Assembly (NCBI GenBank): GCA_037133395.1 | Contig: JBAXOG010000003.1 | Span: 7,644 to 71,643, forward strand | Source of the DNA: a bacterium | GTDB taxonomy: Bacteria > Verrucomicrobiota > Kiritimatiellia > RFP12 > UBA1067 | Direction of reading: 5' to 3' | Length of the DNA stretch: 64,000 nucleotides | Shown: positions 10,057 to 57,451 of the stretch, piece by piece | Numbering within the stretch: position 1 is the first letter of the stretch | Layout of the letters: each line of letters begins with the position of its first letter | The notes under the pieces: model-generated | Told to the model about the DNA's origin: nothing | Database searches by the model: none | The model's input: the letters and a program-made list of their open reading frames with translations, nothing else | Program-made: the position numbers and the translations under genes

Positions 10057-10078
10057 CAAAATTCCTCCTAAAAATGAT

Positions 10079-12148: not shown

Positions 12149-12184
12149 ACGTTTACTCCTTGTTGTCAAATAACCTCTTTCAGA

Positions 12185-20028: not shown

Positions 20029-22950
20029 ATGAACAGACAGGAACAGACGACGCAAGCGCATCCGGCGGTGGGGCGGTTTGCAGGACGGATGTTGAAGGTA
20101 GTGGTGGCTGGGGGGAGTCTTCTTGCAGGTCCAGGAGGGGCTGCGGATCTGATCAATTCGACCTATCGCATGGCGCTTCAGGACGATGGATCGGTTTTGC
20201 TGTCCTGTGCCAGCGTGCAGGCGCAGCGTTTCGAACCGCGATTCACGATCCTCTATTCAGCGACGGAACCCAAACGAGGTCTAAACTGGGGCGAGTTCAA
20301 GGACCCGCGCCTGAAAGGCATGTACAATATCGAGAACTGGTCCGCCAAGCGGGGCAAGGCGGTCCGGATCATCGTCGATCCGAACCAGCACGTTGATGAC
20401 GGATCCGATCCCCTGACGGATCGCGACGTGGAGGCCGGCATGACCTGCAACCTCTTCAAGGCCGGACGAAGCGTCACCCTCCGTGCGACTAAAGGCGTCG
20501 TTGACAACAACCGCATCCTGTGGAGTTTCCCGGAAAACAACAATTTTAAACTTAAGGCCGAGATCGAGCTCCCTCGGGGAAGCAAAGCGCCCAAACTGAC
20601 CTGGCGCTTGACCCCAACAAAGGCGGGCTGGTGGTCGGTCGGTTACACGGGCGCGCCGGAGGTCGAACCGGACAAGATGGATGAAATGTGGCAGCCCATG
20701 ATCTGGCAGGAGAAACGTTTCCCTGAGGATTGCTTCATGACGAGCGCCTTCCGCTGTCCTCTGCCGACTACTTTGGTCACTCTGAAAGGGGTCACATGCG
20801 GCGTGGTCGCCGAGCCAGACGCATTGCCTTTTCAGCCGATGCCCAAGTTAGACAACTCCCAATTCGGCGTTGCGGTGCGGAATGCAAAGGGCATGGCTCA
20901 GCCCATGCTCTTTGCGCCGGTACTAGGCGGAACGAACTCGCTGATGCAAGCGGGCGCGACGCACGTCTTTTCCTGTCGTCTCGTTGTCTGTTCGGGTGGT
21001 TGCACTGCGGCTTACGAGCAGATCGCCCGATCACTGTTCGGGTTTCGCGACCATCGCGAGAACTTCTTCTGTTCCCTCAACACGACGCTGGAGAACATGG
21101 TTTCTTACGGTATGGGCGAGTACAGCCGGTTTAATTCGGAACTCCGCGGCTGCTCATACGATACGGACATGCCCGGAAGCGTGAAGAACATCTCTTCGCT
21201 TCACCCGGTGGGGCTGGCGTTGATCATGGATGACGAGGCCATCTACAGGGAACGTGGACTCCCAATGATCGAATTCGCTCTGTCGCGTGAGAAGTTTCTT
21301 TTCACGACCAAACTGGGAGAGAAGGGTACACAGTCCGCCTCGTCAATCCTGAACGGTCCCGGCGGGCAGGTGTCTGAGTTCGCAACCCTGTATCAGATGT
21401 CGAACAGGCGCATGCCGTTTTTGCTGGATGCCGCCACGGAACTGATGGGCAAGACGCGGATTTTGAATCTGGATGCACCGGTTCCCGGCAACATCTGGCC
21501 GAACGCACTGGCCCTCTATCACGCCACCGGCGATTCCCAATGGCTAAAAAAAGCGGTCGAGGGGGCAGACCAATATCTGGCGAGACGTTTGGCCAAACCG
21601 CAGAACGATTTTCAAGATCCCGATTCGAGGGGGATGTTCTTCTGGACCAGTTATGTGCCGAACTGGTCGGAACTGCAACTGCTATATGAGGCTACGGGCG
21701 AGAAACGGTTTCTGGATGCGGCGGTGCGCGGTGCGCGACAGCACGCGCAGTGCATCTGGATGTGTCCGGCGATCCCGGACGCGAACATTCTGGTCAATGA
21801 AGGCGGCGTTGCGCCGGCCTATCGGCCTCGTGTAGAGCCCCGTATCAAGCTTCCCGAGGAGATCGTGCCAGCCTGGCGGATGTCGGAAATCGGGCTGACC
21901 CCTGAGTCCGCCCCGACCTGCAAGGGCCATCGCGGGGTTTTCCTGGCCTGTCACGCGCCGTGGATGCTGCGGTTGGGACTGCTGGCCCAGGATGCGTTCC
22001 TGCACGACATCGCCCGCTCCGCCGTCGTCGGCCGCTATGCCAATTTTCCCGGCTATCACATCAACGCCGGACGTACGACGCTCTTCGAGAAGCCCGATTT
22101 CCCCCTGCGTTCCATGAAGGAGCTCAACGGCGTTACGTCGCTCCACTACAACCATGTCTGGGCGCAGATCGGCATGGTGTTCGATTACCTCGTCTCCGAT
22201 GCATTCTACAAGAGCAAAGGCCAGATCGTTTTCCCGGGACATTACGCCGAAGGCTATGCGTATGTGCAAACCAAGGTTTATGGTGACCGGCCTGGGCGCG
22301 TCTACGACAAGAAAGACGCTTGGCTCTGGATGCCCAAAGGGTTGTTGCACTGTGACAATGTCCAAGTGAACACTGTCGCGGCGCGCGGCGCGAACGCGCT
22401 CTATCTGGTCTTGCTGAACCAGTCGCAGCAAGCCGTGACGCCGACCGTGACGCTGGATAAGACGCGGGTGAACGTTTCCGGTGAGCACGCGGTGAACGTC
22501 TGGAAACAGAATGTGAAGACGGACACCGTGCGGATGGTTGGAGGCGCGATTCAGACGTCGATCGCGGCGGAGGGGATCACCGTACTGGAGATCACCGGCC
22601 TGCGGATTGAGACGGCATTCCAGAAGAAGGTCCTCGCCGCAGCATCGGTCCCCCCGAAAAAGGGAAGCGTCGAACTGCCCTTCGGCGGCGGCAGCAAAGC
22701 GTTTCTGCTTTCGTTCGGTCCGGAACTGACCAGTGCGTACGTCTATACCAAAGCAACCTACGAGACGGTCCGCAGCATCACCCTGCATTACCGGAACGGC
22801 GACACCTGGAAGACGGTGAACGACACGGCTTATCCCTACGAATTCACGGTACCGTTGACTTCCGGGGATTCCAGTTTCCAGTTCTTTCTGGAGGCGGTGA
22901 ACCCGGCAGGGACGGTCACGAAATCAGAGACCGCCGTTCTCTTGCGTTAA
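20029..22950 (+). CDS. secreted protein of unassigned family, paralog P1 (putative glycan-cleaving enzyme)
   Basis: The ORF is open from GTG 19942. I prefer ATG 20029, which has a GGGGAG Shine-Dalgarno upstream and a hydrophobic signal-like segment ([14 protein letters not shown]). I recognise no CAZy motif. It shares blocks with P2 and P3: [36 protein letters not shown]...WLWMPKGLL. Confidence 0.75.
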
Positions 22951-22972
22951 ACGTCAAGGAGATGAATCATTC

Positions 22973-25927
22973 ATGCAATTGCAAACGAAACAATCGCTTC
23001 TTATCTTGCTCCTCTCGGCGCACAGCTTCTTGCATGGTGCGGAAGATACGTCGCTCTGGTATCGCCAGCCAGCACCCCTGACCAACTGGTGTGAAGCGTT
23101 GCCGGTGGGCAACGGGCGTCTAGGCGCGATGGTCTTCGGAGGTGTACGCGAAGAGCGTCTGCAACTGAACGAAGAGAGCATCTGGTCGGGCCAGTGGCAG
23201 GACTGCAATAAGGCAGGTGCTTATAAGGTCTTTCCTCAAATCCAGCAATTGATTTATGAAGGAAAGTATAAAGAGGCCAGCACTTTAGTCCAGAATGAAG
23301 TACTGGGTGAACGTCCGCTGGGTTGTTATCAGCCGCTCGGGGATCTTTTCCTGACTTTCGACGGACAGGACCAGCCCCAGGATTATCGGCGCGAGCTGGA
23401 TCTCGATACCGCCATTGCGAAAGTCACGTATCGAATCGGAGATGTCCAGTATACGCGAGAAGTCTTCTCCAGTGTTCCCGACCGCGTTATCGTCGTGCGG
23501 TTAACCAGCGACAAGCCTGGCCGTCTCAGCGTGTCGGCCCGACTCGGTCGCGAGGCGGATGCGGCATGTGCTTCAAAAGGCAGGCGGGGTCTGATCTTGA
23601 GCGGACAGGCCGATCGCGGAAAGCCAACCGCAGGCACGCGGTTCGTGGGTCGCGTGGAAGCAGTCCCAGAAGGGGGAACCGCCACTTCGTCTGACGGGGT
23701 CTTGCACATAGAAAAGGCTGACGCCGTGACCCTGCTTGTGAACGCGGCATCGGATTATCGTACGAGGGACTTCGAAGCCGCCTGCGAGCACGTGCTGGCG
23801 ACGGCGGCAGCGCGTCCGTATGCGGCCTTGCGCGAAGCGCACGTCAACGAGCATCAGCGCCTTTTCCGACGCGTCATGCTAAAACTTGGCGCTGCGTCCG
23901 AGCTGCCGACCGACGAACGTCTCCGTCGGGTCCGGCGCGGTGAACAGGACGTGTCCCTCCTTGCCCTCTATTTCCAATACGGACGCTATCTGCTGATCAG
24001 TTCGTCCCGTCCGGGAACGCTTCCTGCCACGTTACAGGGCATCTGGAATGAGCGACGCTCCCCACCTTGGTTTTGCGGTTGGCATTTCGATATCAATGTG
24101 CAGATGAACTACTGGCTTGCCGAGACCACGAATCTCGGCGAGTGCCACGAACCTTTCATTGAGCTGATCGACGCCCTGCGCGAGAACGGACGCAAGACGG
24201 CACAAGAGGTTTATGGTGCGAAGGGCTTCGTTTTTGCGCATCGGACCACGGCATGGCTCTTTACTGCGCCAGTCAAGGGCCTGGACATCTGGCCCATCGG
24301 CGCGGCGTGGTGTTGTCAGCATCTGTGGGAACATTACCTCTTTACCCAAGACAAGGTCTACTTGGCGAACAAGGGATATCCGGTCATGAAGGAGGCGGCG
24401 GAGTTTCTGCTTGATTGGCTTTCTCCCGATCCTGTCACGGGCAAGCTGGTCAGCGGACCTTCCATCTCCCCGGAAAACAGTTTTACCATCGGCGACGGAA
24501 AGATGGCCCAACTGGACATGGGCCCCGCAATGGATCAGCAGATTGCGGCGGAGCTATTCAATAATTGCCTAACCGCTGCGGCGCTTCTTGGAATCAGCGA
24601 TACCTTCACGGAGAAGGTGAAGCGCGCCCGTGAAAAGCTGGCCGAGCCGAAGGTGGGCAAGGACGGCCGGATGCTTGAATGGTCAACCGAGCGGCCCGAA
24701 CGGGAGCTCGGGCATCGGCACCTATCGCATTTGTATGCAGCTTATCCCGGCAACCAGATCACCCTTCGGGGCAGCCCTGCGTTAGCGGCTGCGGTCCGGA
24801 AGTCACTGGAATGTCGAATCAAGAACGGAGGTGACGCGAAGGGCAACAATGCCGCGAACACGAGCAACACGGGCTGGACGCTCGCCTGGATCGCTAATCT
24901 CTGGGCTCGGCTCGGTAATGGGCAAGAGGCCTATGTGTCGGTTCTGAATCTCCTTCGGAATGCCGCTTATCCGAATCTCATGGATACGCATCCGTCGAAA
25001 GACGGGATCGGCGTTTTTCAGATCGACGGAAATCTGGGGGGGGCTGCGGCGGTGGCGGAGATGCTGGTCCAGAGTCACGAGGAAAATGATGAATGCGGAA
25101 TGATGAATGATGAATGGAAAAAGGGGAAAGGATCGGGGAATTCCTCATTCATAAATCATAATTCCTCCTTCATAATTTTTCTTCTGCCCGCGCTTCCGAA
25201 GGAATGGCCCGAGGGAGAGGTTCGAGGGCTTCGTGCGCGCGGCGGCTTTGAAGTGGATATCGCGTGGAAATCGGGCAAGCTGATCAAGGCGACCCTCCGC
25301 AGTATCGAGGGCCGATGCGTAAAGGTTCGTTACGGCCAGAAAGAGTATGTGCTGGAGTTCAAGGCGAAGGACGACCGCCAAACGATCTCCGGCACGGTTG
25401 AGATCAAGAAAACTCCGGTTCCGAAATCCACGTTGCCTGCAAAGATGAAAAACGCCAAGACCGAGGTCGATTTTTTCGCTTACATGAAGAGTGCGTCGAA
25501 TCCGAGCATGATCGGATTTCGCAGCAACGGTCGTTGTTATCCCTATTCCACGCCTTTGGGACGGCGGATCGGTTATAAGCAAGGGGTGACGGATAAGAAA
25601 CTGTATTCCGAAGGCTGGTTGGTGGCAGACGCGGAGCAAGCCTTACGGGCAGAGCTTGAACATGTCACAGCGGCCCTGCGCAAGCGTCTGCAAGCGGAAT
25701 TGAAATGCGAGTTTGATCAATTGCCTCGTGAAGCACGTGAGATCCTGACGGACTTCGGATACACGGAGGGCGTGGAGAAACTAAAGTCGGAGTTTATTCA
25801 GCTTGTTGTGAAGCTCGACTGGAAGCGGATTCTCAAGCCCGAACACTATGTGCGGTATGAAGCAGACTGGCCGGACAGTGTCAGAAATAAGGCGTTTTAC
25901 GGTCGGTGGAGCCAGCACGTGGAATAA
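22973..25927 (+). CDS. alpha-L-fucosidase (GH95) with internal 31-aa insertion and C-terminal extension
   Basis: 984-aa ORF with an AAGGAG Shine-Dalgarno and a signal peptide. The GH95 N-terminal block is present (LWYRQPA...[17 protein letters not shown]...[11 protein letters not shown]). The late GH95 block MLVQSHEE...[10 protein letters not shown] is interrupted by an insertion. About 180 extra residues follow the usual GH95 end. Confidence 0.85.
25085..25177. repeat. 93-bp imperfect palindrome of opposed 7-bp tandem arrays, in frame within the GH95 CDS
   Basis: The left arm is TGATGAA TGCGGAA TGATGAA TGATGAA TGGAAAA (25087-25121). The right arm is TTCCTCA TTCATAA ATCATAA TTCCTCC TTCATAA (25141-25175). 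The segment is clearly more AT-rich than the flanking coding DNA. It encodes [31 protein letters not shown]. Confidence 0.75.
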
Positions 25928-25970
25928 CTCGGGCTCTCGCAAAGGAAACAAAGGCGTAAAGGGGTTTTCA

Positions 25971-28829: not shown

Positions 28830-28847
28830 CGAAAATCAAGATTCACG

Positions 28848-29144
28848 CTAATCCGGAGAAGAGTTTGAACAGAAGCACGCAAAGTTCGCAAAGAAGAGAC
28901 ACTGTTGCGGCAATTATATTCGGGAGTACCCGAACAAAATTTCCGCAACGGTACTTCGGGGGAATTGGGGGCAATAAGGAAGAAACTCCAGAGCTCAGCA
29001 CCTATTCATTTCTTCAACATTCTTTACGGAGCGGTGTTTTGCGAATTTTGATCCCGCTTCAGCGGGAGCAAGATACGCGAAACATTTTCTTCCTTCGCGT
29101 CCTTCGCGAGCTTCTGTTCAAACGCCCCTCCCTCTTCGGATTAG
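28848..29144. repeat. MITE-like element / long inverted repeat (about 297 bp)
   Basis: The left end is ctaatccggagaagagtttgaacagaagc. The reverse complement of the right end is ctaatccgaagagggaggggcgtttgaacagaagc. Arm similarity continues inward (cgcaaagttcgcaaagaag versus cgcgaaggacgcgaaggaag). Internal small hairpins are present (ttgcgg...ccgcaa, tcccgc-ttca-gcggga). No coding capacity is evident. Confidence 0.6.
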
Positions 29145-29308
29145 TGGGGATCAGTGCAGATTAGTGGTGAAGTCCTTCTTCTGGGAGGTACTTGTGGGTA
29201 ACAGAAAGGCCTCGCCAGAGGTCGAGACGGGTGGTGAAGGTTTGATTTCGCGCGGAAGTCGCCACTATTTAGTGGCTGGAGTAATAAGTGAAGAAAAAGG
29301 ATGCCATA

Positions 29309-31129
29309 ATGATTAAGAAAATGTTGGGATTAGCTTTGGTTATGATTTCGTGTTCCGCGCTTGCGGCGGACCTTTCGCACGTGCCGCAGATCAGTGAGAC
29401 GCCACAGCAGCACGATGCGCGGATGCAGTGGTTCCGCGATGCCAAGTTCGGGATGTTTATCCACTGGGGACCTTCTTCGGTCGGAGCCACGGAAATCGGC
29501 TGGGGCCGCAATGCGGCCCGGCCCTGGGATATCGGCAAGCCCAACAACGCCCGCCAGCGCACCGAGGATCCGGTTTACGACAACTACAACAAGCAGTTCA
29601 ATCCAACCAACTACAACGCCGATGCATGGGTAAACTTCGCCAAGGAATGCGGCATGAAGTACATGGTGATCATCGCCAAGCATCATGACGGTTTCTCGAT
29701 GTTCGACTCGAAGGTGACCGATTACGACATCATGGCGACACCCTATAAGCGCGATATCATCAAGCTGTTTGCCGAGGCCTGCCACAAGAACGGCATAAAG
29801 CTGGGAATCTATTACTCCACCCGCGACTGGTATAACCCTGATTACCTGCAAGGCGACAACGCCAAATATGATCAGTGGTATCGCACGCAGATCCAGGAAC
29901 TGCTGAGCAACTACGGGCAAGTGGACGTGGTGTGGTTTGACAGCGTGGGCGGCAACGATTGGGGTAAGTGGAAGTTCGATGAGCTCTTCGCGATGATGTA
30001 CCGCCTTCAGCCCGGGCTGCTCATCAACAACCGGGTGAAGTTCATCGGTCCCAAGACGCCCGAAGACCGCAAGCCCGCCTCGCCGGAAATAGAGAAGATG
30101 ACCAAGGGCGATTTCGGCACGCCCGAAGGTGTCATCGGTGCCTACACCATCGATAAGGATTGGGAATCGTGCATGCGCAACGGCAGGGGCTGGAGCTATC
30201 GCGGAGAGGATGGGTTCCGGGAGCCCGACGATGCCATCCGGATGCTGGTCAGTTCTGTGACGGGTGGGGGCAATCTCCTGCTGGATTTCGCGCCGCGTCC
30301 CGACGGCACCTTTACCGTTGGAGACATGAAGGTGGGCCGGGCCGCAGGTGCTTGGCTGAAGAAATACGGGGAAGCCATCTACGGCACGCGTGGGGGGCCG
30401 TATCGGAACGGTTCATGGGGTGGCAGTTGTCACAAAGGCGGGAAGCTTTTTCTTCACCTCTTCCCAAAACGCAAGGGCGCGTGGGTCTTTGATCTGCTGC
30501 CGTGCAAGGTGCTCTCGGCCCGCGTGCTGGGGGGTGAGCCGGTCAAATTCGCTCAGAGCGACAAGGAGCTATCCTTCCAGGTGGGCGAGGGCCAATACGA
30601 TGCCCCTGTGACCGTGATTGAGCTGTCCTTGGATCAGCCTGTAAAGGACGGGACGACGGTCGGCAGCGTACACGGCGAAGACCTGTCGGAACACGGAAAG
30701 ATCCTCAGTGAGAACGCCACCTTGGAAATCAGTTCGCAATCGCGTCATGATCAGAACGACCACGAGCGGTTGTTCAAAGGTGACAAGCCCAAACACGGCA
30801 AGGCGTTCCAAACGGAACCGGAAAATAACCCCTGGGCCAAAATTGATCTTGGCGCGGTAAAAAATGTGAAGGCCGTCATAATTGAGAACCAGGCCTTGGA
30901 GCGTCGAACCGCTGGGCTGATCCTCTCTGTCTCCGCCGATGGCCAGAAGTGGGAAAAAGTGTGGAAGGCAGAGCAATGGGATTTGAGTTGGACGATCCCC
31001 TTGACCACCTTCGAGACCGGCGCGGAGGTGCCCGGGCGCAAGGTGCGCTATCTCAAGATGGAAACCAAAGGGGCCACCAACCACCCGCTGATTTTGCAAA
31101 GGTTCACTGCTTACGGAGACGATAGATAA
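29309..31129 (+). CDS. alpha-L-fucosidase (GH29) with C-terminal F5/8 type C-like domain
   Basis: The ORF is open from GTG 29288. ATG 29309 has AAGGA 8 nt upstream. A signal peptide is present. GH29 blocks: MQWFRDAKFGMFIHWGP and MKYMVIIAKHHDGFSMFDS. It is a close paralog of 35556..37418. Confidence 0.85.
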   Translation: MIKKMLGLALVMISCSALAADLSHVPQISETPQQHDARMQWFRDAKFGMFIHWGPSSVGATEIGWGRNAARPWDIGKPNNARQRTEDPVYDNYNKQFNPTNYNADAWVNFAKECGMKYMVIIAKHHDGFSMFDSKVTDYDIMATPYKRDIIKLFAEACHKNGIKLGIYYSTRDWYNPDYLQGDNAKYDQWYRTQIQELLSNYGQVDVVWFDSVGGNDWGKWKFDELFAMMYRLQPGLLINNRVKFIGPKTPEDRKPASPEIEKMTKGDFGTPEGVIGAYTIDKDWESCMRNGRGWSYRGEDGFREPDDAIRMLVSSVTGGGNLLLDFAPRPDGTFTVGDMKVGRAAGAWLKKYGEAIYGTRGGPYRNGSWGGSCHKGGKLFLHLFPKRKGAWVFDLLPCKVLSARVLGGEPVKFAQSDKELSFQVGEGQYDAPVTVIELSLDQPVKDGTTVGSVHGEDLSEHGKILSENATLEISSQSRHDQNDHERLFKGDKPKHGKAFQTEPENNPWAKIDLGAVKNVKAVIIENQALERRTAGLILSVSADGQKWEKVWKAEQWDLSWTIPLTTFETGAEVPGRKVRYLKMETKGATNHPLILQRFTAYGDDR

Positions 31130-32514: not shown

Positions 32515-33769
32515 AGCGAAACAAAAATGGATTGCGCTGGCTGTGGTGTGTCTGGTCGGCACGGCTCAAGGTCAGGAGGCTAAAATCGAGAACAAGCTGG
32601 GCGTGGATGAAGACCGTGTAAAACATTTCAAGTCGCTCTCCACCAAAGAGAAGATCATTTTCGCTGTCCAAGACAAAGAGCTCATCGCGGCGCGCGCACA
32701 GATGGCGGACCTTTCAGGCTCGGGCGAGAATCCTTACGTCGGGGGCTTTCCCGTGCCTCGCAGCTACTCCACTCACCCAAACTACCGTACAAAGCTCGAA
32801 ACCAGAGCCGATGGGCTTTCCTACAAGCTGAAGATCTCGTATGATGAACAATTGCCCGGTTTACAGGGATTCTTAACCAACAATTTTATCCCCGCAGTGA
32901 AGAAGTATTGCGAGGGCGGGCAACTGAACGTCGATTTTGACTCCTTGAAATTCAGCATCGCGGAAAGGCCGAATACGGATGACCTGAATGTTCAAGAAGA
33001 CATCCCCTACAACATCCTTGGGAAGCGGGCCCTTGTGCTGGATCTCTACGTGCCCAAGGCGCCTCCAAAGTCCAAGGCTTACCCAGTTCTCCTTTTCTTC
33101 CATGGTGGAGGATGGCTTAGCGGGCATCACTACAGCAATCGTGCAGTAGCCATCTCCATGGCCAAGAAGGGCTTTGCCACGGTAGTTGTGGAATATCGGT
33201 TGGGTGTTGAGGCGATCTTCCCGGCTGCTGTCTGGGATGGAAAGGCTGCCGTACGATGGGTTAGGAAGAATGCGGACAAATACAAGCTGGATCCGAACAT
33301 GATCCTCGTCAGCGGCGGGTCGGCCGGGGGCAACATTGCCGGTCTTGTGGGAATGACCAACGGCGACTCGCGTTTCGAGGGCGATGGCAATCACAAGGAG
33401 TACTCCAGCGTAGTCCATGGTGTCATCGCTTACGATGGCGCCGTTCATCAGAGCAATGGACTCTGGACGGGCGGAGGCGAAGGCAGGCCTGACCCCACGA
33501 AGGCAAATCCGTGGTTCTACAATGAGTCGATTCCGCTTTTCCACATCATCAGTAAAGACGGTGGCGTGCCTATCCTCTTCGTCAAGGGGGGGAGGCCTCT
33601 GAGCATTTGGATCAAAAAGTATATCAACAATATCAAGGTGGATTGGCTGGATCATCGGTGGGTGCATGGATTTGAAGTTTTTGACCCGTCTAAAGATATC
33701 CTGGTCGAACAGCTCATGGAGTATTTCAAAAGTGACCGGTCGCTTTGGGCTGGGAAGTTGAACATCTGA
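32495..33769 (+). CDS. alpha/beta-hydrolase fold esterase (HGGG-type, Abhydrolase_3-like)
   Basis: 424-aa ORF with a signal peptide. It carries the oxyanion motif LLFFHGGGW and the nucleophile elbow VSGGSAGGN. Confidence 0.75.
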   Translation: MKTVIPKAKQKWIALAVVCLVGTAQGQEAKIENKLGVDEDRVKHFKSLSTKEKIIFAVQDKELIAARAQMADLSGSGENPYVGGFPVPRSYSTHPNYRTKLETRADGLSYKLKISYDEQLPGLQGFLTNNFIPAVKKYCEGGQLNVDFDSLKFSIAERPNTDDLNVQEDIPYNILGKRALVLDLYVPKAPPKSKAYPVLLFFHGGGWLSGHHYSNRAVAISMAKKGFATVVVEYRLGVEAIFPAAVWDGKAAVRWVRKNADKYKLDPNMILVSGGSAGGNIAGLVGMTNGDSRFEGDGNHKEYSSVVHGVIAYDGAVHQSNGLWTGGGEGRPDPTKANPWFYNESIPLFHIISKDGGVPILFVKGGRPLSIWIKKYINNIKVDWLDHRWVHGFEVFDPSKDILVEQLMEYFKSDRSLWAGKLNI

Positions 33770-33772
33770 GAA

Positions 33773-35545
33773 ATGAAAACTAGTCAAACATTGAGGGTTT
33801 CTTCAATTCTGCTCGTTTGCGCGAGCGTGGTGACGGTGACGCAGGCTAGTCCGGCGTCGCAGGTCGAGCAGTTTGCAGCCGCCAAAGGGCGCGAGTATGT
33901 CTATCAAATGGATCCGATTCCCGAGGGGCTCATCTCCGCACGGTTTCATCTCTGGATTCCCGATTCCGTCAGCAGGACCGGAAGAATCCGTGGGGTAATC
34001 GCCCAGAACGGTTACAATTACGGCCTGATGCCGGAGGTTTTCCGCGCCGCGCATTGGAGAGCGCTGGCCTCCGAGCTTGGGCTGGCGCTCTGTCTCTACC
34101 GTGTCCAGGAGTCCAACCGCAAACACGCCGGTGGCCCGGGTAGCGCCCCGGTTACGGTTGCCGCGATTGAAGGCGGACTGGAGCATTTCGCCCAAACCCT
34201 TGGCCGCCCTGAACTCAAGCATTCCGGACTGATCTTCACCGGCCTCTCGGCCTCCGGGCGTCAAGCCATCTATCTTGGGAATGAGATGGCCGCACGGACC
34301 ATTGCGGTCATCGTCTACAGTCCCGCCACCAACCTGCCTCATCCGCTGGATACAGGCGTTCCTGTGCTGATCAACATGGGCGGCCGCGATCTGAAGCATG
34401 GGAACCCGATAGGTTTAGATAAGCTGATTCTCGCGGCGAGGACCCAAGGCGCGCCATGGCTGGGCCTGTTTCAGGCCAGAGTGCCGCACAACGGACACGG
34501 CGACCCCAGCTTCGTGATGGATTGGGCCCGCTGGGCAGTCAAAGCGCGCGTACCGGAAACCATTCCCGCCGATGTTCCGGTTCAGCTTAAGTCCCTTGCG
34601 ATTGAAAAGGGATGGTTGGGTCGGCTACGTTTAAACTCCGACCTCAACGACCCGCATCCCGAAGGCCCGGACGCGGCGACGGTCAGGCCTTGTTTTGGAG
34701 GCGCGGATGCTGCGAAGACCGCTTATTGGCTTCCGACTGAAGCGCTGGCCCGGGACTGGAAGGAGTATTGTCTGCGCCCCGACGTCCGTTTTGTCAATGG
34801 CATGGGTGAGGAGCCCGTGTTGCGTAACGAATCCTTCGTCAACTCGATCGGCATGCGTCTGGTGATGATTCCTGCCGGACAGTTCATCATGGGCAGTCCG
34901 GCCGATGAGGAGAAGCGGGCCGAGGATGAAACCCAGCACCCGGTCAGAATTACAAACCCCTTCTACATGGCCGCGACTGAAGTCACTCAGGCTCAGTGGT
35001 TGAAAGTCATGACCAACAATCCCTCGGGCTTTTTGGCTGATGTCAATCCAGTGGAAAATGTCAGCTATGATGACGCCTTGGCATTCTGTAAGGCCCTCAG
35101 CCGACTCGAGGGGCGGCCCTACCGTTTACCGACCGAGGCGGAATGGGAATATGCCTGTCGGGCGGGAACGGCGACACCCTTTCATTTCGGCTGGTCGATC
35201 GACACCGACCTGGCCAACTACCGCGGCGATGTCGGCTATGGCGGCGGAACTTCCGGCATTGACCGCCGTCGGCCGGGTCCGGTGGCCCAATTTCCGGCTA
35301 ATGCCTGGGGTCTTCATGACATGCATGGGAACGTGTTCGAATGGTGCGCTGACGGGTACGGCCCGTATCCGACAGGCGCCTTTCCCGACCCCAAGGGGCC
35401 GCAGGACGGCACTCAGAGGGTTTTTCGCGGCGGGGCATGGTACACCCTGCCTCACCTCACACGCGCCGCTTTCCGGGGCATGTCCGCTCCGGGCTATAAG
35501 AGTCTGATGGTCGGCTTCCGAGTGGTTGCCGAAAAGAGGGGATAA
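33773..35545 (+). CDS. fusion protein: N-terminal unknown (hydrolase-like) domain plus C-terminal formylglycine-generating-enzyme (SUMF1/FGE) family domain
   Basis: 590-aa ORF with a signal peptide. The C-terminal ~250 aa has FGE-family blocks: MRLVMIPAGQFIMGSP, ATEVTQAQW, YRLPTEAEWEYACRAG, GLHDMHGNVFEWCAD, RVFRGGAW. Confidence 0.8.
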   Translation: MKTSQTLRVSSILLVCASVVTVTQASPASQVEQFAAAKGREYVYQMDPIPEGLISARFHLWIPDSVSRTGRIRGVIAQNGYNYGLMPEVFRAAHWRALASELGLALCLYRVQESNRKHAGGPGSAPVTVAAIEGGLEHFAQTLGRPELKHSGLIFTGLSASGRQAIYLGNEMAARTIAVIVYSPATNLPHPLDTGVPVLINMGGRDLKHGNPIGLDKLILAARTQGAPWLGLFQARVPHNGHGDPSFVMDWARWAVKARVPETIPADVPVQLKSLAIEKGWLGRLRLNSDLNDPHPEGPDAATVRPCFGGADAAKTAYWLPTEALARDWKEYCLRPDVRFVNGMGEEPVLRNESFVNSIGMRLVMIPAGQFIMGSPADEEKRAEDETQHPVRITNPFYMAATEVTQAQWLKVMTNNPSGFLADVNPVENVSYDDALAFCKALSRLEGRPYRLPTEAEWEYACRAGTATPFHFGWSIDTDLANYRGDVGYGGGTSGIDRRRPGPVAQFPANAWGLHDMHGNVFEWCADGYGPYPTGAFPDPKGPQDGTQRVFRGGAWYTLPHLTRAAFRGMSAPGYKSLMVGFRVVAEKRG

Positions 35546-35555
35546 AGAAATTAAG

Positions 35556-37418
35556 ATGAAAAACAAAACAAGAACAAACGTAACGGCATCATTGCCATTG
35601 AAACTCATTTTGACTGTCCTGCTGCTGGCGACGTTCTCCGAGGTGCACGCCGCCAAGCCGGTCGACCTCTCGCATGTGCCGCAGATCAGCGAGACGCCAC
35701 AGCAACGTGATGAGCGCCTGCAATGGTTCCGCGACGCGAAGCTCGGGATGATGATCTGTTGGGGCCCCAACTCGCTGGGCGAGTGCGAGATCGGCTGGAG
35801 CCGCAAGGCCGCCCGGCCCTGGGACATCGGCAAGCCTAACAACGACAGAAAGCGCACGGAGGATCCGGTTTACGACAACTATTACCAGCAGTTCAACCCG
35901 ACGAATTTCAATGCCGACGCCTGGGCGCAAATGGCGAAGGCGTGCGGGTTCGAATACGTGGTGGTCCTCACCAAGCATCATGACGGGTTTTCGATGTTCG
36001 ACTCGAAGGTGACCGACTACGACATCATGGCGACGCCTTACAAGCGCGACATCATCAAGCAGTTCGCGGATGCATTCCACAAGCAGGGAATACGCTTCGG
36101 ACTCTACTATTCGACCCGCGATTGGTATCACCCTGATTATCTCCAAGGCGACAACGCCAAGTATGACCAGTGGTATCGCACCCAGATCGAAGAGCTGCTC
36201 ACCCACTACGGCCCCGTGTCCGTCTTATGGTTCGACAGCGTGGGCGGCAACGACTGGGGCAAATGGAAGTTCGATGACCTGTTCTCGATGATGTATCGCT
36301 TACAGCCGGGCTTGCTTGTCAATAACCGCGTGAAATTCATCGGGCCAAAGACTCCCGAAGACCGTGGTCCCGCATCGCCCGAAATCAAGACCATGACGCA
36401 GGGCGACTTTGGCACGCCGGAAGGTGTGATCGGCGCTTTCACGATCGACAAGGACTGGGAGTCCTGTCTGCGCGTGGGCCGGGGATGGTCCTATCGGGGT
36501 GAAGAGGGACACCGGAAACCGGCTGATGTGATCCGGATGCTGGTCAGCGCGGTGACTGGCGGGGGCAACCTGCTCTTGAGCTTCGGCCCACGGCCGGACG
36601 GTTCGATCGTCGGCTTCGAAACTGAAGTCGCTCAGGCTTTGGGAAATTGGCTCAAGAAAAATGGCGAGGCGATCTACGGGACGCGCGGCGGACCGTATCG
36701 CAACGGGATATGGGGCGGCAGTTGCCACAAGGGGGACAAACTCTATTTGCATTTCTACCAGTGGCGGAAAGACGGTTGGACGTTCGATCCGCTGCCCTGT
36801 GTTGTGAAATCCGCACGCACGCTTGCGGGTGCAAAGGTGCACTTCGAGCAAACCGCCAAGGCGCTATCGCTTCGCTTCGACAAGGCGGAGTTTGCAACTC
36901 CCGCAACGGTTGTCGAACTGACACTCGATCAGCCGGTCAAGGACGGGCTGGTCGTGGGTGGCGTGCATGGGGAGGACCTCTCGGAACACGGCAAAATCCT
37001 CAGCGAGAACGCGACCCTGGAGTTGAGTTCGCAGTCGCGCCATGACAAGGGCGAACACGAGCGCTTGTTCAAAGGGCAGCGGGCCAAATACGGCGACGCC
37101 TTCCAGACTGAACCTGAGAAGAACCCTTGGGCCAGGATTGATCTCGGCGCGGTAAAGAACGTCAAGGCCGTCGTGATCGAGAACAAGCCGACGGAGCGCC
37201 GGAGCGAGGGGCTGATCCTGTCGGTTTCGACGGACGGAAAGAAATGGGCCGAAATCTGGAAGGCAGAACAATGGGATTTGAGTTGGACGGTTCCAATCAC
37301 GACCCTTGAAGCCGGCGCCGAGGTGCCGGGACGCAAGGCCCGTTATTTCAAGGTGGAAACCAAGGGCGATACAACCCGCCCGCTGATTTTGCAAAGGTTC
37401 ACCGTTTATGGGGAATGA
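35556..37418 (+). CDS. alpha-L-fucosidase (GH29) with C-terminal F5/8 type C-like domain
   Basis: The ORF is open from 35526. ATG 35556 begins MKNKTRTNVTASLPLKLILTVLLLA (signal peptide). GH29 blocks: LQWFRDAKLGMMICWGP and VVVLTKHHDGFSMFDS. It is highly similar to 29309..31129 at both protein and DNA level. Confidence 0.85.
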   Translation: MKNKTRTNVTASLPLKLILTVLLLATFSEVHAAKPVDLSHVPQISETPQQRDERLQWFRDAKLGMMICWGPNSLGECEIGWSRKAARPWDIGKPNNDRKRTEDPVYDNYYQQFNPTNFNADAWAQMAKACGFEYVVVLTKHHDGFSMFDSKVTDYDIMATPYKRDIIKQFADAFHKQGIRFGLYYSTRDWYHPDYLQGDNAKYDQWYRTQIEELLTHYGPVSVLWFDSVGGNDWGKWKFDDLFSMMYRLQPGLLVNNRVKFIGPKTPEDRGPASPEIKTMTQGDFGTPEGVIGAFTIDKDWESCLRVGRGWSYRGEEGHRKPADVIRMLVSAVTGGGNLLLSFGPRPDGSIVGFETEVAQALGNWLKKNGEAIYGTRGGPYRNGIWGGSCHKGDKLYLHFYQWRKDGWTFDPLPCVVKSARTLAGAKVHFEQTAKALSLRFDKAEFATPATVVELTLDQPVKDGLVVGGVHGEDLSEHGKILSENATLELSSQSRHDKGEHERLFKGQRAKYGDAFQTEPEKNPWARIDLGAVKNVKAVVIENKPTERRSEGLILSVSTDGKKWAEIWKAEQWDLSWTVPITTLEAGAEVPGRKARYFKVETKGDTTRPLILQRFTVYGE

Positions 37419-37431
37419 AGATGAGGAGAAT

Positions 37432-39246
37432 ATGACGACGATGAGAAAATGGGTTCAGGTTGGATTGTCTGTGTCGTGCGCCGTGGACATCTTCATAATT
37501 GGCGTAGCGGTAGCAGCGCCGGCTTCGGCTGGCGTTTTGGCGAGAGCCTCCAGCAGCGCGAGTGCGAAAAGCAGCGCTGATAAGGCCATGGATGGGGATG
37601 AGGCCACCTGGTGGTCGCCGACGCGCGAGGAGTGGACTACCAGAAGACCGACGTGGCTGGAGGTGGACCTCGGCGAAGAGCGGGAGATCGGCCATGCGTT
37701 CGTCACGGAACTGGCCGGTGGCAGTTATCCGCACATCCAGGACTTCCGGATTGAATACAAAGACGGGGATACATGGAAGTGCGTCCATGAGGGCGCGGAG
37801 ATTTTTGGACGGCGCGTTTACGACTTCAAATCTGTGAAAGCGCGCGTGTTTCGAATGACCTTCATCAAGGTGCTGAGGTATCCGCAAAGCATCAATGAGT
37901 TTCACCTGTATGCGCCTGGAAAGCTGCCGGAGGCGGCGCTGGAGGCCAAGCGTCAGGAGGCGGAAACCGCCAAGCGCCTCGAGTGGTTCAAGGCCGCCAA
38001 ATACGGGATGATGATTACTTGGGGGCCTTATGCCGTGGCCGGAGGCGAGTGGAATGGCAAACCTGTGAAGGGCATCGGTGAGTGGATTATGCGCCGGGCC
38101 AATGATGACAAGGGCATTCCCCTCAAGGAATACGAGCAACTCGCGGCGCGGTTCAACCCGACGAAGTTCAACGCCGATGAGTGGGTCCAATTGGCGGTCG
38201 ATGCGGGGATGAAATACATCGTCGCCATGCCCAAGCACCACGACGGCTTCGCGATGTTCCACTCGGCGGTGGATAAGTATAACATTTTTGATTACACCCA
38301 GTGGAAGCGGGATCCCATGAAGGAACTGGCGGCGGCCTGTGCCAAGAAAGGGATCAAGCTGGGATTCTACTACTCGCAGTCGCAGGATTGGCATCATCCA
38401 TACGGCGCGGGCAACGATCTGGAGTATCCGCCCCTCAACAAACCGATCGAGGATTTTTCAAAATACCTCAACGAAAAGGCATTGCCCCAGGTACGTGAAA
38501 TCATGACCGGGTATGGTCCCGTGGCCCTGATCTGGTTTGACACCCCAAAAAACATGCCTGCCGACTGGGCCGGAAAGTTCCGCGACGCGATCCGTGCGGT
38601 CCAGCCCGATACGCTCATCAATAGTCGCCTTGGTCCGGGAGGCTATCAGGATTACCTGTCCCGTAACGACAACGACATTCCTCCGGCTGGCCTTCCCGGC
38701 GCGTGGGAGACCGCCGCCACGCTCAATCACACATGGGGATTCAAGAAAAGTGACACGCAATGGAAGACTCCGGAGGATCTTCTCTTCAAACTCGTGGACA
38801 TCACCAGCAAGGGAGGCAACTACCTTTTGAACGTCGGTCCCGATGCCGAGGGGGTTATCCCGCAAGCCAGCCAGGACAATTTAAGGAAAGTGGGTGCCTG
38901 GCTCAAGGTCAACGGAGAAGCAGTTTATGGCACGGGTCCCACGCCGTTTGGCGCGGAGCTCGGCAGCGTCGATCCCGTTAAAAAAGACAAGGGGGGCTAT
39001 CCGCTTTTCAACCCCAACACCGCCTGGCGCTGCACGACGAAGCCCGGAAAACTTTACATCACCCTCTTCCAGTGGCCCAGTACCACGTTCGAATTGCCCG
39101 GTGTAAAAGAGAAGGTGACAAAAGCTTACTTTCTAAGCGAGCGGACCAAGCCGGTGAGCTTCTCGCAGGAAACCGATAAACTGGTGGTCCGGCTTCCACC
39201 GCAGGCACCTGATGCCATGGCCTCGGTGCTTTGTTTGGAATATTGA
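37432..39246 (+). CDS. alpha-L-fucosidase (GH29) with N-terminal F5/8 type C-like domain
   Basis: The ORF is open from 37408. ATG 37432 is preceded by GAGGAG. The N-terminus is discoidin-like (AMDGDEATWW...FRIEYKDGDTW). GH29 blocks: LEWFKAAKYGMMITWGPY and MKYIVAMPKHHDGFAMFHS. Confidence 0.85.
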   Translation: MTTMRKWVQVGLSVSCAVDIFIIGVAVAAPASAGVLARASSSASAKSSADKAMDGDEATWWSPTREEWTTRRPTWLEVDLGEEREIGHAFVTELAGGSYPHIQDFRIEYKDGDTWKCVHEGAEIFGRRVYDFKSVKARVFRMTFIKVLRYPQSINEFHLYAPGKLPEAALEAKRQEAETAKRLEWFKAAKYGMMITWGPYAVAGGEWNGKPVKGIGEWIMRRANDDKGIPLKEYEQLAARFNPTKFNADEWVQLAVDAGMKYIVAMPKHHDGFAMFHSAVDKYNIFDYTQWKRDPMKELAAACAKKGIKLGFYYSQSQDWHHPYGAGNDLEYPPLNKPIEDFSKYLNEKALPQVREIMTGYGPVALIWFDTPKNMPADWAGKFRDAIRAVQPDTLINSRLGPGGYQDYLSRNDNDIPPAGLPGAWETAATLNHTWGFKKSDTQWKTPEDLLFKLVDITSKGGNYLLNVGPDAEGVIPQASQDNLRKVGAWLKVNGEAVYGTGPTPFGAELGSVDPVKKDKGGYPLFNPNTAWRCTTKPGKLYITLFQWPSTTFELPGVKEKVTKAYFLSERTKPVSFSQETDKLVVRLPPQAPDAMASVLCLEY

Positions 39247-39353
39247 AAGCTCAAGCGGAAGCGAAACCGACGCGCTCTTCCTGGAAGTGGGTTGCGGGAA
39301 TTGCCGCTTCAAGGCGAGCTAACGTATTTGAATGGCTGGGCTTCTTTGACGTT

Positions 39354-39378
39354 TGCGCAAAAAAACAAAAAATAAACG
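39354..39378 (+). promoter_or_regulatory. 25-nt box TGCGCAAAAAAACAAAAAATAAACG upstream of the beta-strand-repeat/P3 operon
   Basis: It is identical at 22 of 25 positions to 19918..19942. It lies about 110 nt upstream of ATG 39470. Confidence 0.4.
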
Positions 39379-39469
39379 CAATAGTCTGTGGTGTTTTTTG
39401 AGCGGCTTTGCTTAAATAAGCCTATAATAAATACGTGGTTACAACAAAACGTTAAAAAGGAGAACAACG

Positions 39470-41026
39470 ATGAAAAACAAAACAGTTGTCATGAAAATGC
39501 TTTGCTTGATCCTGATCGCGCCCTTGGGCGTGATGGCGGCTGATCGTCACAAGAAGGATAACAACGACAATCTGAACACGACCACGAGCTGGGTCGAGGG
39601 GGCGGTTCCTGGTAACACGGACATCGCCATCTGGGACGCCACCGTCGCTACGCCGGCGAACTGTACGAATACTGCGAGTACAGGGTTTGGTGCTGTGAAG
39701 GGTATCGTGGTTTCCGATCCTGCATCGGATGTGAGAATCACGCAGGGAACAACCGTAGCTATCGGAACGAACGGAATCGTCTTGTCCGGAACCCGTGACC
39801 TCTATTTATCCATGGGCGGGAATATTTTTAATCTTGGGACTGGAGCACAGACGTGGAATATCGCATCGGGCCGCACGGTGACGATTGACAGCACCAAGCC
39901 CTATTTCTGGTCCGGGTCATTGCAGGGAAAGCTGACACTGACAGGCGCCGGAACTGTGGTTTTTACGAACGGCACCCCTGCCATCGGTTATAATAGCGCC
40001 ATCAAGTCCAACACGCTGGAGATTGTCGACAGCACGTTGCGCCTCTACAGCGGACTATGGGTGGCCAGTTCAGGAACCGGTGTGGTCTATCAGACGGGCG
40101 GAACAGTGGATTTGCGTAACATGTGTACACTCGGGGGCGGGAATGCGGCGGTGGCATCGTATGATCTCGCAGGGGGTCAGTTCTCAAGTACGGCAAACTT
40201 AAATCTTGGCTTGTCTTTCCCCAATACGGGCAGGAGCAATAGTATCGCGCGATTCACTGTCCGAGAGGCGGGCGCGGCGCTCGTGCGGGACATTCTGATG
40301 GGCGGCAGTAGGAATACCAACGGCACGATGACGCTGACGCTGAAGACCGGCGGCACGCTGAGCGCCAATTCAATCACGACGGACGTCACCGCGGTCGACT
40401 GTGCGCTGCTGATGGAATTTGACGGCGGGATCCTGAAACCGACAGGGAATAACGCGACTTTCTTCAACGCGATGGCACAGGCGGCGGGATCCGTCGGTAC
40501 ATCAAAGGCGACCCTTTCAGCCAATGGCGCGGTCATTGACACGGCGGGTTATAACGTCACGATCGCGCAGCCTCTGGCCGATGCGGACGGACAGGTGGGG
40601 CGCTTGGTCAAGCTGGGCGCGGGAACGTTGACGCTGACCAATGCCCATACGTTCACGGGGCCCGTGGTGGTCAGTAACGGTACATTGCGCGTGGCATCCA
40701 ACGCGACGCTGGCCAGCACGAACTGGGTCATCGCGGCCGGCGCCACGAACACGTTCGACAGCGCCGTGAGTCTGGCGGGCAAGAACGTCACGATCGATGC
40801 GGGCGGGTCGGTGAATCCCGGCCTGCTGGACGTGACGGGTACCCTTACGCTGGGTGGCAAGCTAACGGTGGTCAACACGGGCGACCGGCAGAAGATCGCC
40901 CAATGTACTGGGGTACTGTCGGGCGACTTCGATGAGGTTGTACCCAAAGGATATATCGTGCGGAAAATCGGCGACACGGAACTGTGGTTGATAAAGATCA
41001 AAGGCACCCTGATCAGCGTATTATGA
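39470..41026 (+). CDS. autotransporter-associated beta-strand repeat (PATR-type) surface protein
   Basis: 518-aa ORF with an AAGGAG Shine-Dalgarno and a signal peptide. PATR-like repeats are present (LTLTGAGTVVFTNG, KLGAGTLTLTNAHTFTGPVVVSNGTLRV). The C-terminal tail is ...KGTLISVL. Confidence 0.85.
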   Translation: MKNKTVVMKMLCLILIAPLGVMAADRHKKDNNDNLNTTTSWVEGAVPGNTDIAIWDATVATPANCTNTASTGFGAVKGIVVSDPASDVRITQGTTVAIGTNGIVLSGTRDLYLSMGGNIFNLGTGAQTWNIASGRTVTIDSTKPYFWSGSLQGKLTLTGAGTVVFTNGTPAIGYNSAIKSNTLEIVDSTLRLYSGLWVASSGTGVVYQTGGTVDLRNMCTLGGGNAAVASYDLAGGQFSSTANLNLGLSFPNTGRSNSIARFTVREAGAALVRDILMGGSRNTNGTMTLTLKTGGTLSANSITTDVTAVDCALLMEFDGGILKPTGNNATFFNAMAQAAGSVGTSKATLSANGAVIDTAGYNVTIAQPLADADGQVGRLVKLGAGTLTLTNAHTFTGPVVVSNGTLRVASNATLASTNWVIAAGATNTFDSAVSLAGKNVTIDAGGSVNPGLLDVTGTLTLGGKLTVVNTGDRQKIAQCTGVLSGDFDEVVPKGYIVRKIGDTELWLIKIKGTLISVL

Positions 41027-41095
41027 CGATGCCTGGCAATTCTGTCTGACATTGAATCGGCGGGGCGGCTTTCGGGGGAGAGCCGAAGAGGAGGA

Positions 41096-56081: not shown

Positions 56082-56084
56082 TGA

Positions 56085-57374: not shown

Positions 57375-57423
57375 AACGTTTAAAAGTGTGCCATATCTTG
57401 CGGAAAAAAACTAGACACGAATG

Positions 57424-57446: not shown

Positions 57447-57451
57447 ACATT

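Follow-up and report, generated by a model that had tools for sequence, protein, structure and literature searches.

Three secreted paralogs from a verrucomicrobial genome as candidates for a new enzyme family with a predicted six-hairpin fold

Introduction

Among the major consumers of algal and plant glycans rich in fucose and rhamnose are the Verrucomicrobiota and Planctomycetota of freshwater and soil, and enzyme discovery has so far been made mostly in Bacteroidota. Here we analyze three paralogous genes, P1, P2 and P3, in a stretch of 64,000 nucleotides (the window) from a bacterium of the Kiritimatiellia (Verrucomicrobiota; GenBank assembly GCA_037133395.1, contig JBAXOG010000003.1, positions 7,644 to 71,643), and the protein family to which they belong, labeled family X in this report. 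In architecture and genomic company, the closest described families are two glycoside hydrolase (GH) families, GH95 (alpha-L-fucosidase/alpha-L-galactosidase) and GH139 (2-O-methyl-fucosidase BT0984). By sequence, the closest appears to be GH127/GH146 (DUF1680, PF07944; HypBA1, BT1003 and BT0349), and only at the level of a motif.

GH127/GH146 enzymes act on unusual L-configured or acidic sugars and occur in loci with GH95 and GH106, for example in the degradation of rhamnogalacturonan II (RG-II). HypBA1 is composed of a barrel followed by two beta-sandwiches, and catalysis in GH127 uses a Cys nucleophile (Cys417 in HypBA1) placed in a Cys/Glu zinc site. The polysaccharide lyase (PL) family PL27 has a beta-sandwich/(alpha/alpha)6/beta-sandwich layout, and enzymes of the GH65/GH94/GH15 type combine an N-terminal beta-sandwich with an (alpha/alpha)6 barrel. 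In GH95 and GH139, an N-terminal beta domain is followed by an (alpha/alpha)6 toroid and a C-terminal beta domain; crystal structures of the GH139 enzyme BT0984 from 2025, the first for this family, are GH95-like, with N412/E561 as the catalytic pair, and more than 90% of GH139 is found in Bacteroidota (PMC12282258). On the basis of the results presented below, we consider P1, P2 and P3 to be good candidates for a new enzyme family.

Results and discussion

Three full-length paralogs

P1, P2 and P3 (Table 1) are full-length paralogs. BLASTP gave 38% identity between P1 and P3 over 924 aa (E=0), 27% between P1 and P2 (E=8e-97) and 26% between P2 and P3 (E=8e-67), in agreement with the original prediction, made from the letters of the window, that P2 is the most distant of the three. 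The coordinates proposed at that time were exact and the reading frames are unbroken, whereas the estimate that P1 and P3 are roughly half identical applies to the C-terminal block alone and not to the whole length. All of the quoted motifs could be read in the translations: YR(I/M)x(V/L)...G and PGR(V/F)YD...WMP in the three proteins, the GRYAN block (VGRYANFPG in P1, VGRYANYAG in P2 and IGRYANFPG in P3), the HYNHV block (SLHYNHV in P1 and SFHFNHV in P3) and the EGYAY block (11 residues in P1; FPSEYTEGYAY in P3). Only VGRYAN needed correction, as the first letter is I in P3. The secretion leaders claimed for the three proteins were also seen: a hydropathy heuristic, which is the only signal-peptide evidence used here, found a hydrophobic N-terminal leader in P1, P2, P3 and 100 of 104 full-length homologs. 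Residues 16-32 of P1 form a low-confidence helix in the AlphaFold model.

Predicted fold

The full-length AlphaFold2 (AF2) model of P1, based on a 40-sequence alignment, had a predicted local distance difference test score (pLDDT) of 88.8 and a predicted template modeling score (pTM) of 0.90; the corresponding values were 86.4 and 0.88 when the barrel (residues 323-735) was modeled alone. A layout of sandwich, helical toroid and sandwich had been guessed from the sequence, and the models bear it out, with a beta domain, an (alpha/alpha)6 barrel and beta-sandwiches in this order. We examined 50 Foldseek matches in the PDB for each of the two models. All significant matches of the barrel model were (alpha/alpha)6 six-hairpin proteins, including AGE-family sugar isomerases/epimerases (template modeling (TM) score of about 0.5), GH76, GH9, LanC-type cyclase domains and PL27 (TM normalized to the query, TMq, 0.43-0.45). 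For the full-length model, E-values were lowest for a GH101 enzyme (8e-8) and for enzymes of GH94, GH15 and GH65 (3e-6 to 1e-4); we take the latter three to be 'super-sandwich + (alpha/alpha)6' types and the matched GH101 enzyme to have a different catalytic fold. The best global TM was obtained with the PL27 enzyme BACCELL_00875 (5NOK/5NO8; TMq 0.27, TM normalized to the target, TMt, 0.36, probability 1.0).

The models thus place family X in the six-hairpin superfamily, whose mark is an (alpha/alpha)6 barrel of about 12 helices. This assignment is predicted from the confident barrel model, from the Foldseek matches of the barrel, which were (alpha/alpha)6 proteins only, and from the profile matches to GH76, GH127-like and GH88/GH105 proteins described below. 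The structure prediction yielded a confident six-hairpin fold for which there is no close solved structure among the listed matches.

Placement among known families

No match to P1, P2 or P3 was found in Pfam-A (2025) and NCBIfam (2026) at E-values up to 1, except for a chance-level match of P2 to LANC_like (E=0.1), and none among PDB sequences with phmmer. Nearly all homologs are named 'hypothetical protein' in the databases; rare exceptions are 'rhamnosidase six-hairpin domain-containing protein' and, on two NCBI fragments, 'glycoside hydrolase family 127 protein'. Thus, family X fits no family represented in Pfam, NCBIfam or PDB, and the description of P1-P3 as an unrecognised family holds. 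The statement that they carry no signature of the carbohydrate-active enzyme (CAZyme) database CAZy is correct for P1-P3 themselves in these three databases, but their homologs show a consistent sub-threshold signal of PF07944, the GH127 catalytic domain.

This signal was examined using family X profiles. Searches of the PDB with such profiles retrieved GH76 (E=1e-4), the GH127-like 'six-hairpin glycosidase' 6EX6 (E=1.2e-3) and, weakly, GH88/GH105 and HypBA1 (E=1.7 for the latter), and all of these matches lie within one 'ATGD..YL..A' double-hairpin motif of ~90 residues. Matches to PF07944 in homologs covered 70-115 of its 376 profile positions with 14-26 bits (cut-off 24.9); they were sub-threshold in 28 of 40 homologs, and the partial match of one fusion homolog, P0156, reached 26.4 bits. 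The hairpin motif accounts for the sub-threshold matches, for the P0156 match and for the occasional GH127 and rhamnosidase names. In P1, P2 and P3, no PF07944 match was found at E-values up to 1. Furthermore, none of the cysteines is conserved in family X: C243 is Cys in 34 of 40 sequences and Glu in P2, C375 is Cys in 22 and Phe in 13 of the 40, and C579 is Cys in 21 of the 40, each of them being substituted in P2 and/or P3. The lack of a conserved cysteine excludes a catalytic centre of the GH127 type with its Cys and zinc. We therefore rejected membership in GH127/GH146, the only curated family model with a recurrent, if weak, signal in family X. In both, two beta-sandwich domains come after the six-hairpin barrel, as predicted in the case of family X; unlike GH127/GH146, family X has an additional N-terminal beta domain of ~280 aa, no conserved Cys/Zn and a match that is limited to one motif.

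Several other families were considered and rejected. Family X shares its three-part architecture with GH95 and GH139, and GH95 also shares its genomic company, being encoded between P1 and P2 and recurring as a neighbour elsewhere; however, a sequence relationship to either family was undetectable. For GH95, hhalign comparison of family X profiles with the GH95 protein of the window gave a probability of 0.1-0.3 (0.2 for GH106 as negative control), with no Pfam match. No GH95 or GH139 chain was found in PDB profile searches at E-values up to 10 or among the 50 listed Foldseek matches per model, and GH139 also differs in distribution, being mostly a Bacteroidota family, whereas family X is found mainly in Planctomycetota, Verrucomicrobiota and Lentisphaerota. 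GH29 was rejected for P1-P3, as no PF01120 match was found and the predicted fold differs. Other toroid lyases (PL8, PL12, PL15, PL17, PL21 and so on) were absent from the PDB sequence matches and from the listed Foldseek matches, and no Pfam lyase domain was detected.

With PL27, an L-rhamnose-alpha-1,4-D-glucuronate lyase, the superposition of full-length P1 was the best in global terms but weak (TM 0.27-0.45 over the two models, root mean square deviation (rmsd) 8-13 Å), with no sequence similarity. PL27 is linked to rhamnose-capped glycans, and family X is often encoded beside GH106; on the other hand, no downstream enzymes for unsaturated uronates were seen in the window or among the recurrent neighbours annotated in family X loci. 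The low Foldseek E-values of GH65/GH94/GH15-type enzymes over ~1,000 aligned columns are read as shared domain order: global TM was 0.14-0.20 with rmsd above 20 Å, there was no sequence similarity, and GH65/GH94 phosphorylases are cytoplasmic whereas family X is secreted. The alpha-1,6-mannanases of GH76 gave the best PDB profile match and a barrel TM of up to 0.52, but the alignment was confined to a repeated 'Y..TGD..YL..A' hairpin motif, and GH76 is a single-domain family of ~350 aa with a DD catalytic pair, a counterpart of which was not identified in family X.

No characterised homolog of family X was found in the literature on GH127/GH146-like enzymes, PL27, PL43, GH139 and new families from Verrucomicrobia, or under the Termitidicoccus mucosus accession given below. 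A recent screening of polysaccharide utilization loci proposed four new families, PL_New1, PL_New2, GH_New1 and GH_New2, whose relation to family X cannot be judged from its text (bioRxiv 10.64898/2026.05.19.726164). Family X is probably a new family of an already known enzyme fold, where novelty is meant relative to Pfam, NCBIfam and PDB, as some CAZy families are represented neither by a Pfam model nor in the PDB.

Occurrence and domain fusions

A word-indexed search identified 697 relatives of family X. In a profile search of 1.84 billion cluster representatives, 1,104 clusters (at 50% identity) were obtained at E-values up to 1e-3 and 582 at E-values up to 1e-30, and a scan of one genome each for 185,579 species revealed 446 encoding loci. 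Among the best 80 of these 446 loci, most belonged to freshwater Opitutaceae and other Verrucomicrobiota, Planctomycetota and Lentisphaerota, with fewer in Hydrogenedentota, Calditrichota, Acidobacteriota and Armatimonadota and none in Bacteroidota. One homolog (WP_068769470) comes from a cultured host, Termitidicoccus mucosus. Many of the representatives are long fusion proteins that carry CBM96, ricin-B, Calx-beta, PATR, beta-helix, SLH, Big_2, Golvesin_C and LamG-like modules or a type IX secretion system (T9SS) sorting tail, a repertoire of extracellular glycan-degrading enzymes. It was also observed that Golvesin_C is present both on the GH16 protein of the window and on P0184, a 2,194-aa SLH-anchored homolog of family X; possibly both proteins use this module to bind one and the same glycan substrate.

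Conserved residues and the P2-like subfamily

Residue conservation was analyzed in 122 cluster representatives with 25-48% identity to P1 (P1 numbering is used throughout). R669 and H709 are invariant, and R343, N345, E415, S419, R420, W616, D655, D719, N797 and E938 are each kept by 93% or more of the representatives. Position 380 is Asp or Glu in all but one of them (121/122), position 377 is Tyr or Phe, and position 341 is Asp or Asn. Together with H709, the three arginines of this set hint at an anionic target sugar (uronate, carboxylated or sulfated) or at eliminative chemistry.

P2 retains the core residues, and the putative pocket motifs are changed (Y676D, H677N, N679R, H706N, N708G, E741A, Y743S and Y745F). 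P2-like orthologs beside P1-like genes were identified in at least nine other genomes, with a common signature of Y→D, H→N and N→R at 676/677/679, H→N and N→G at 706/708, and E→A/P, Y→S/T and Y→F at 741/743/745. The retained core and the conserved alternative signature suggest that these proteins are functional, with an altered subsite, rather than decaying copies, which argues for a P2-like subfamily of different specificity. P3 has pocket motifs of the P1 type and is divergent at residues 635 and 682; a P3-like ortholog with 59% identity is present in the related locus L004. In the model, motifs 676-679 and 706-708 lie in loops preceding the last barrel helices and motif 741-745 at the start of the first C-terminal sandwich, and the covariation between subtypes points to all three motifs as candidate specificity determinants.

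Gene neighbourhood in related loci

To describe the genomic context, 79 related loci comprising 1.2 Mb were collected, their open reading frames (ORFs) of at least 200 aa were clustered, and recurrent clusters were annotated. The most frequent neighbour was a FAD-oxidoreductase (PF12831) of ~760 aa (28 of the 79 loci), and the most frequent one among known CAZymes was GH106 (22-23 loci; 18 of the 38 loci that span 15 kb or more). MFS transporters and a first type of TonB-dependent receptor were found in 16 loci each. GH95 was present in 15 loci and was directly adjacent to the family X gene in 13 cases, with both genes on the same strand in 10 of these; LacI/XylR-type regulators were equally frequent (15). 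Less common were a second type of TonB-dependent receptor and GH43 (10 each), an esterase-like protein (9), Gfo/Idh/MocA (8), SASA and SSF transporters (6 each), GH31 (5) and GDSL (4). Homologs of the GH29 genes of the window occurred in only 2-3 loci.

Two operon types were recurrent: a regulator on the opposite strand followed by X, GH95, GH106, a TonB receptor and an esterase; and a TonB receptor followed by GH43, X, MFS and the flavoprotein. Tandem copies of X, two or three in a row, were common, and several related loci have an opposite-strand regulator next to X. The flavoprotein and the MFS transporter accompany family X, usually in the order X-MFS-flavoprotein, in loci L006, L053, L059, L063, L071, L072, L074, L080 and others. 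When the flavoprotein was compared with PDB and NCBIfam, the match was confined to the N-terminal FAD-binding motif. Like family X, the flavoprotein family is uncharacterised, and the two are functionally linked.

Further information came from the contig of a relative with a 96%-identical P1, on which a sulfatase, an opposite-strand XylR gene, a family X gene (973 aa), GH95 and two genes of 952 and 949 aa without Pfam match are contiguous. The sizes of the last two fit P2 and P3, the correspondence being one of size and not of sequence. If they are the counterparts of P2 and P3, the 12-kb block of GH29, esterase, FGE and PATR genes would be extra in the genome of the window, and this block looks like a lineage-specific acquisition or expansion.

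The original prediction had placed P1-P3 at the core of a fucosidase island. On the basis of the recurrent partners in the 79 loci, the rarity of GH29 and the contig of the relative, the conserved functional unit is instead X with GH95 and GH106, to which GH43, esterases, transporters and the flavoprotein may be added. Of the proposed association with GH29 and GH95, only the part concerning GH95 was confirmed in the related loci. The rarity of GH29 also leaves the suggestion that P1-P3 are the missing endo-acting enzyme on a fucose-rich polymer without support. Family X is frequently coupled to TonB receptors and to exo-glycosidases, a setting into which a periplasmic exo-enzyme would fit no less well than an endo-enzyme.

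Proposed function and alternative explanations

We favour, with fair but limited confidence, the view that P1-P3 are secreted glycoside hydrolases of an unclassified six-hairpin family. A hydrolase is preferred because hydrolases, usually of the inverting kind, make up the majority of secreted six-hairpin CAZymes, and the residues conserved in at least 93% of representatives, the leaders, the fusions to carbohydrate-binding modules (CBMs) and surface anchors and the conserved glycan-degradation operons support it. The proteins would act in the periplasm or outside the cell, with the (alpha/alpha)6 barrel as the putative catalytic module. As in other six-hairpin hydrolases, the active site would be expected on the barrel face formed by the long loops from outer to inner helices, where E415 and D380 are candidate catalytic carboxylates, D341 possibly assists, and R343, N345, R420, W616, R669 and H709 may bind the sugar. 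Substrate specificity could be set by motifs 676-679, 706-708 and 741-745, which change in concert between proteins of the P1/P3 type and those of the P2 type, so that the three paralogs might cut different linkages of one complex glycan. This glycan is probably acetylated and probably contains L-fucose, L-galactose or L-rhamnose, and P1-P3 may form one regulon with GH95 and GH106, plus the extra GH29 fucosidases in this genome. Substrate candidates of this kind include algal or cyanobacterial exopolysaccharide, pectic RG-II-like side chains and arabinogalactan-protein caps.

Several observations weigh against this view. Mean conservation was equal in the putative 'top' loops and in the helices of the barrel, and Arg, His and Asn are abundant in the invariant set, a composition that would suit a lyase or an anionic substrate just as a hydrolase. 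All structure matches in the PDB were weak (for the barrel, best TM 0.52 and best E 5e-5), and the best of those to the barrel include non-hydrolases, namely LanC cyclase domains and AGE isomerases. The proposed substrates are deduced entirely from gene neighbourhood. In addition, family X may already be classified in CAZy.

The main rival to the hydrolase view is that family X is a toroid-type polysaccharide lyase that acts by beta-elimination on a uronic-acid glycan, such as the L-Rha- or L-Fuc-capped glucuronate cleaved by PL27, with conserved His/Tyr as base and acid and Arg/Asn as carboxylate neutraliser. R343, N345, R420, R669 and H709, as well as Y377 (Tyr/Phe), belong to the Arg/Asn/His/Tyr repertoire that is typical of lyases; PL27 was the best global structure match of the full-length model, and a rhamnosidase family, GH106, is the known CAZyme most often found nearby. 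However, the TM values to PL27 are low, the PDB searches showed no sequence similarity to PL27 or to further PL families, and PL8, PL15, PL17 and PL21 are not among the listed Foldseek matches. GH88/GH105 unsaturated-uronyl hydrolases were detected neither in the window nor in the recurrent neighbour families that were annotated, and the same holds for KduI/KduD-type genes. E415 and D/E380 show almost no variation, as would be the case in a hydrolase. We therefore regard a lyase as unlikely, though it deserves to be kept in mind.

Two other explanations appear weaker. It is improbable that P1-P3 are non-enzymes (glycan-binding or scaffold proteins) or six-hairpin proteins of a non-glycosidic kind, such as an AGE-like isomerase/epimerase or a LanC-like thiol-adding enzyme. 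Although the lowest E-values of the barrel model came from LanC-type cyclase domains and the highest TM from AGE-family enzymes, and the catalytic residues of family X are candidates read from conservation, a dozen polar residues are kept among such divergent clusters, and the proteins are secreted, are fused to CBMs and cell-surface anchors, and are encoded in tight operons with exo-glycosidases and esterases. Enzymes of the AGE and LanC types consist of one domain and are located in the cytoplasm, and the Cys/His zinc site of the LanC type is not conserved in family X. Still less credible, indeed very improbable, is a divergent branch of GH127/GH146, which would make P1-P3 retaining enzymes of the beta-L-arabinofuranosidase, aceric-acid hydrolase or anhydrogalactosidase type. 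The NCBI names of the two fragments, the weak PF07944 matches including that of P0156, and the resemblance of the barrel and two beta-sandwiches to the HypBA1 layout agree with it; against it are the partial coverage of these matches by a motif that GH76 and GH88 match as well, the poor E-value of HypBA1, the lack of any PF07944 match in P1-P3, the additional N-domain, and the absence of a conserved Cys that could provide the nucleophile and the Cys-rich zinc site.

In a wider and more tentative proposal, family X could well be a truly unclassified CAZy family, GH or lyase, with its own catalytic apparatus, largely restricted to freshwater and soil Verrucomicrobiota, Planctomycetota and Lentisphaerota plus a few other non-Bacteroidota phyla. 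Its P1, P2 and P3 subtypes might cleave linkages that no known family handles, in acetylated and possibly acidic algal or plant glycans bearing L-fucose or L-rhamnose, together with GH95 and GH106, and feed an uptake and oxidation route formed by the uncharacterised MFS transporter and the ~760-aa flavoprotein. Family X, whose genes always lie in operons for glycan degradation, probably accounts for a missing step in these glycan pathways, and is relevant to carbon cycling by freshwater Verrucomicrobiota and Planctomycetota. Definition of its activity would add a CAZy family, improve the annotation of many metagenome-assembled genomes in which it is now 'hypothetical' or mislabeled as GH127, and could reveal the role of the co-conserved flavoprotein; the homolog of T. 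mucosus makes the question directly testable in a cultured host. It should be noted that this would be an incremental discovery, a new family in a well-known enzyme fold and not a new biological principle.

Genes of the window around P1-P3

The neighbours claimed for P1-P3 were confirmed by Pfam, which assigned GH95, GH106, esterases and GH29, the five GH29-type genes being four good ones and one degenerate (Table 1). Upstream, the opposite strand carries the XylR/AraC regulator, GH16, DUF2961 (which we take to be CAZy GH172), GH29, SASA and GDSL esterases and a GH98-like protein. No S1 sulfatase gene is present among the annotated genes of the window. The FG-GAP/VCBS-repeat protein is probably co-translated with GH106. 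The flavoprotein-MFS pair stands beside a second XylR-type regulator (53793-58648), ~10 kb downstream of P3 and on the opposite strand.

Table 1 Coordinates of genes in the window and of the predicted domains of P1
Feature	Position (nt)	Strand	Protein	Remarks
GH29	12537-14306	other strand		Pfam; upstream
GH16 with Golvesin_C	17189-18454	(-)		Pfam
XylR/AraC-type hybrid regulator	18622..19869	(-)		Pfam (PBP1_XylR + Peripla_BP_3 + HTH_18); divergent from P1
P1	20029..22950	(+)	973 aa	Founding paralog of family X; uninterrupted ORF
P1 leader			about aa 1-39	
P1 beta-rich N-domain	20146-20994		aa 40-322	Predicted, AF2 model
P1 (alpha/alpha)6 barrel	20995-22233		aa 323-735	Predicted, AF2 model; 14-16 helices
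P1 beta-sandwich 1	22234-22638		aa 736-870	Predicted, AF2 model
P1 beta-sandwich 2	22639-22947		aa 871-973	Predicted, AF2 model
GH95	22973..25927	(+)		Pfam (PF22124 2.5e-161, PF14498, PF21307); 23 nt downstream of P1
P2	25971..28829	(+)	952 aa	Divergent paralog; uninterrupted ORF
Accessory block between P2 and P3	29288..41026	(+)		Pfam
GH29+F5/8C	29288-31129	(+)		Pfam
Degenerate partial GH29-like gene	31129-32514	(+)	461 aa	Secreted; PF01120 E=4.7e-7, profile positions 91-201 of 345
BD-FAE esterase	32495-33769	(+)		Pfam
FGE-sulfatase-domain protein	33773-35545	(+)	590 aa	Secreted; SUMF1-like domain C-terminal, N-part of ~360 aa without assignment
GH29+F5/8C	35526-37418	(+)		Pfam
GH29	37408-39246	(+)		F5/8C module at N-terminus
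PATR-repeat protein	39470-41026	(+)		Pfam
P3	41096..43915	(+)	939 aa	Third paralog; uninterrupted ORF
GH106 (alpha-L-rhamnosidase family)	44164..47409	(+)		PF17132 2.6e-171; downstream of P3
FG-GAP/VCBS-repeat protein	47406-49778		790 aa	4-nt overlap with GH106 stop codon
FAD_oxidored (PF12831) flavoprotein	53793-56081	(-)	~760 aa	Pfam; no leader
MFS transporter	56085-57374	(-)		Pfam

Within the accessory block, the two GH29+F5/8C genes are 75% identical in protein and about 77% identical in DNA sequence, with a spacing of 6,295 nt, and are recent duplicates. A repeat search gave this internal duplication only and found no flanking repeats around the GH29 block. The partial GH29-like gene may encode a fucosidase-like protein that is degenerate or has diverged strongly.

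Some additional genes were observed on the opposite strand. Four of them encode secreted proteins: a 1,196-aa protein (6553-10143, -) with weak GH98M and DUF4962 matches, a 776-aa protein (49855-52185, -) in which only an N-terminal F5/8C module could be assigned, and two proteins of 709 aa (10079-12208, -) and 223 aa (15967-16638, -) with no family match. A hipBA-type toxin-antitoxin pair (52204-53711, -) separates the CAZyme cluster from the flavoprotein/MFS cluster, with HipA (HipA_C + Couple_hipA) at 52204-53409 preceded, with a 4-nt overlap, by a 101-aa HTH-antitoxin-like ORF at 53406-53711. Finally, a Gfo/Idh/MocA oxidoreductase gene and then a xylose-isomerase-like TIM-barrel (AP_endonuc_2) gene are located at 58773-61011 (-), a pairing that is seen in oxidative (3-keto) pathways of glycoside cleavage.

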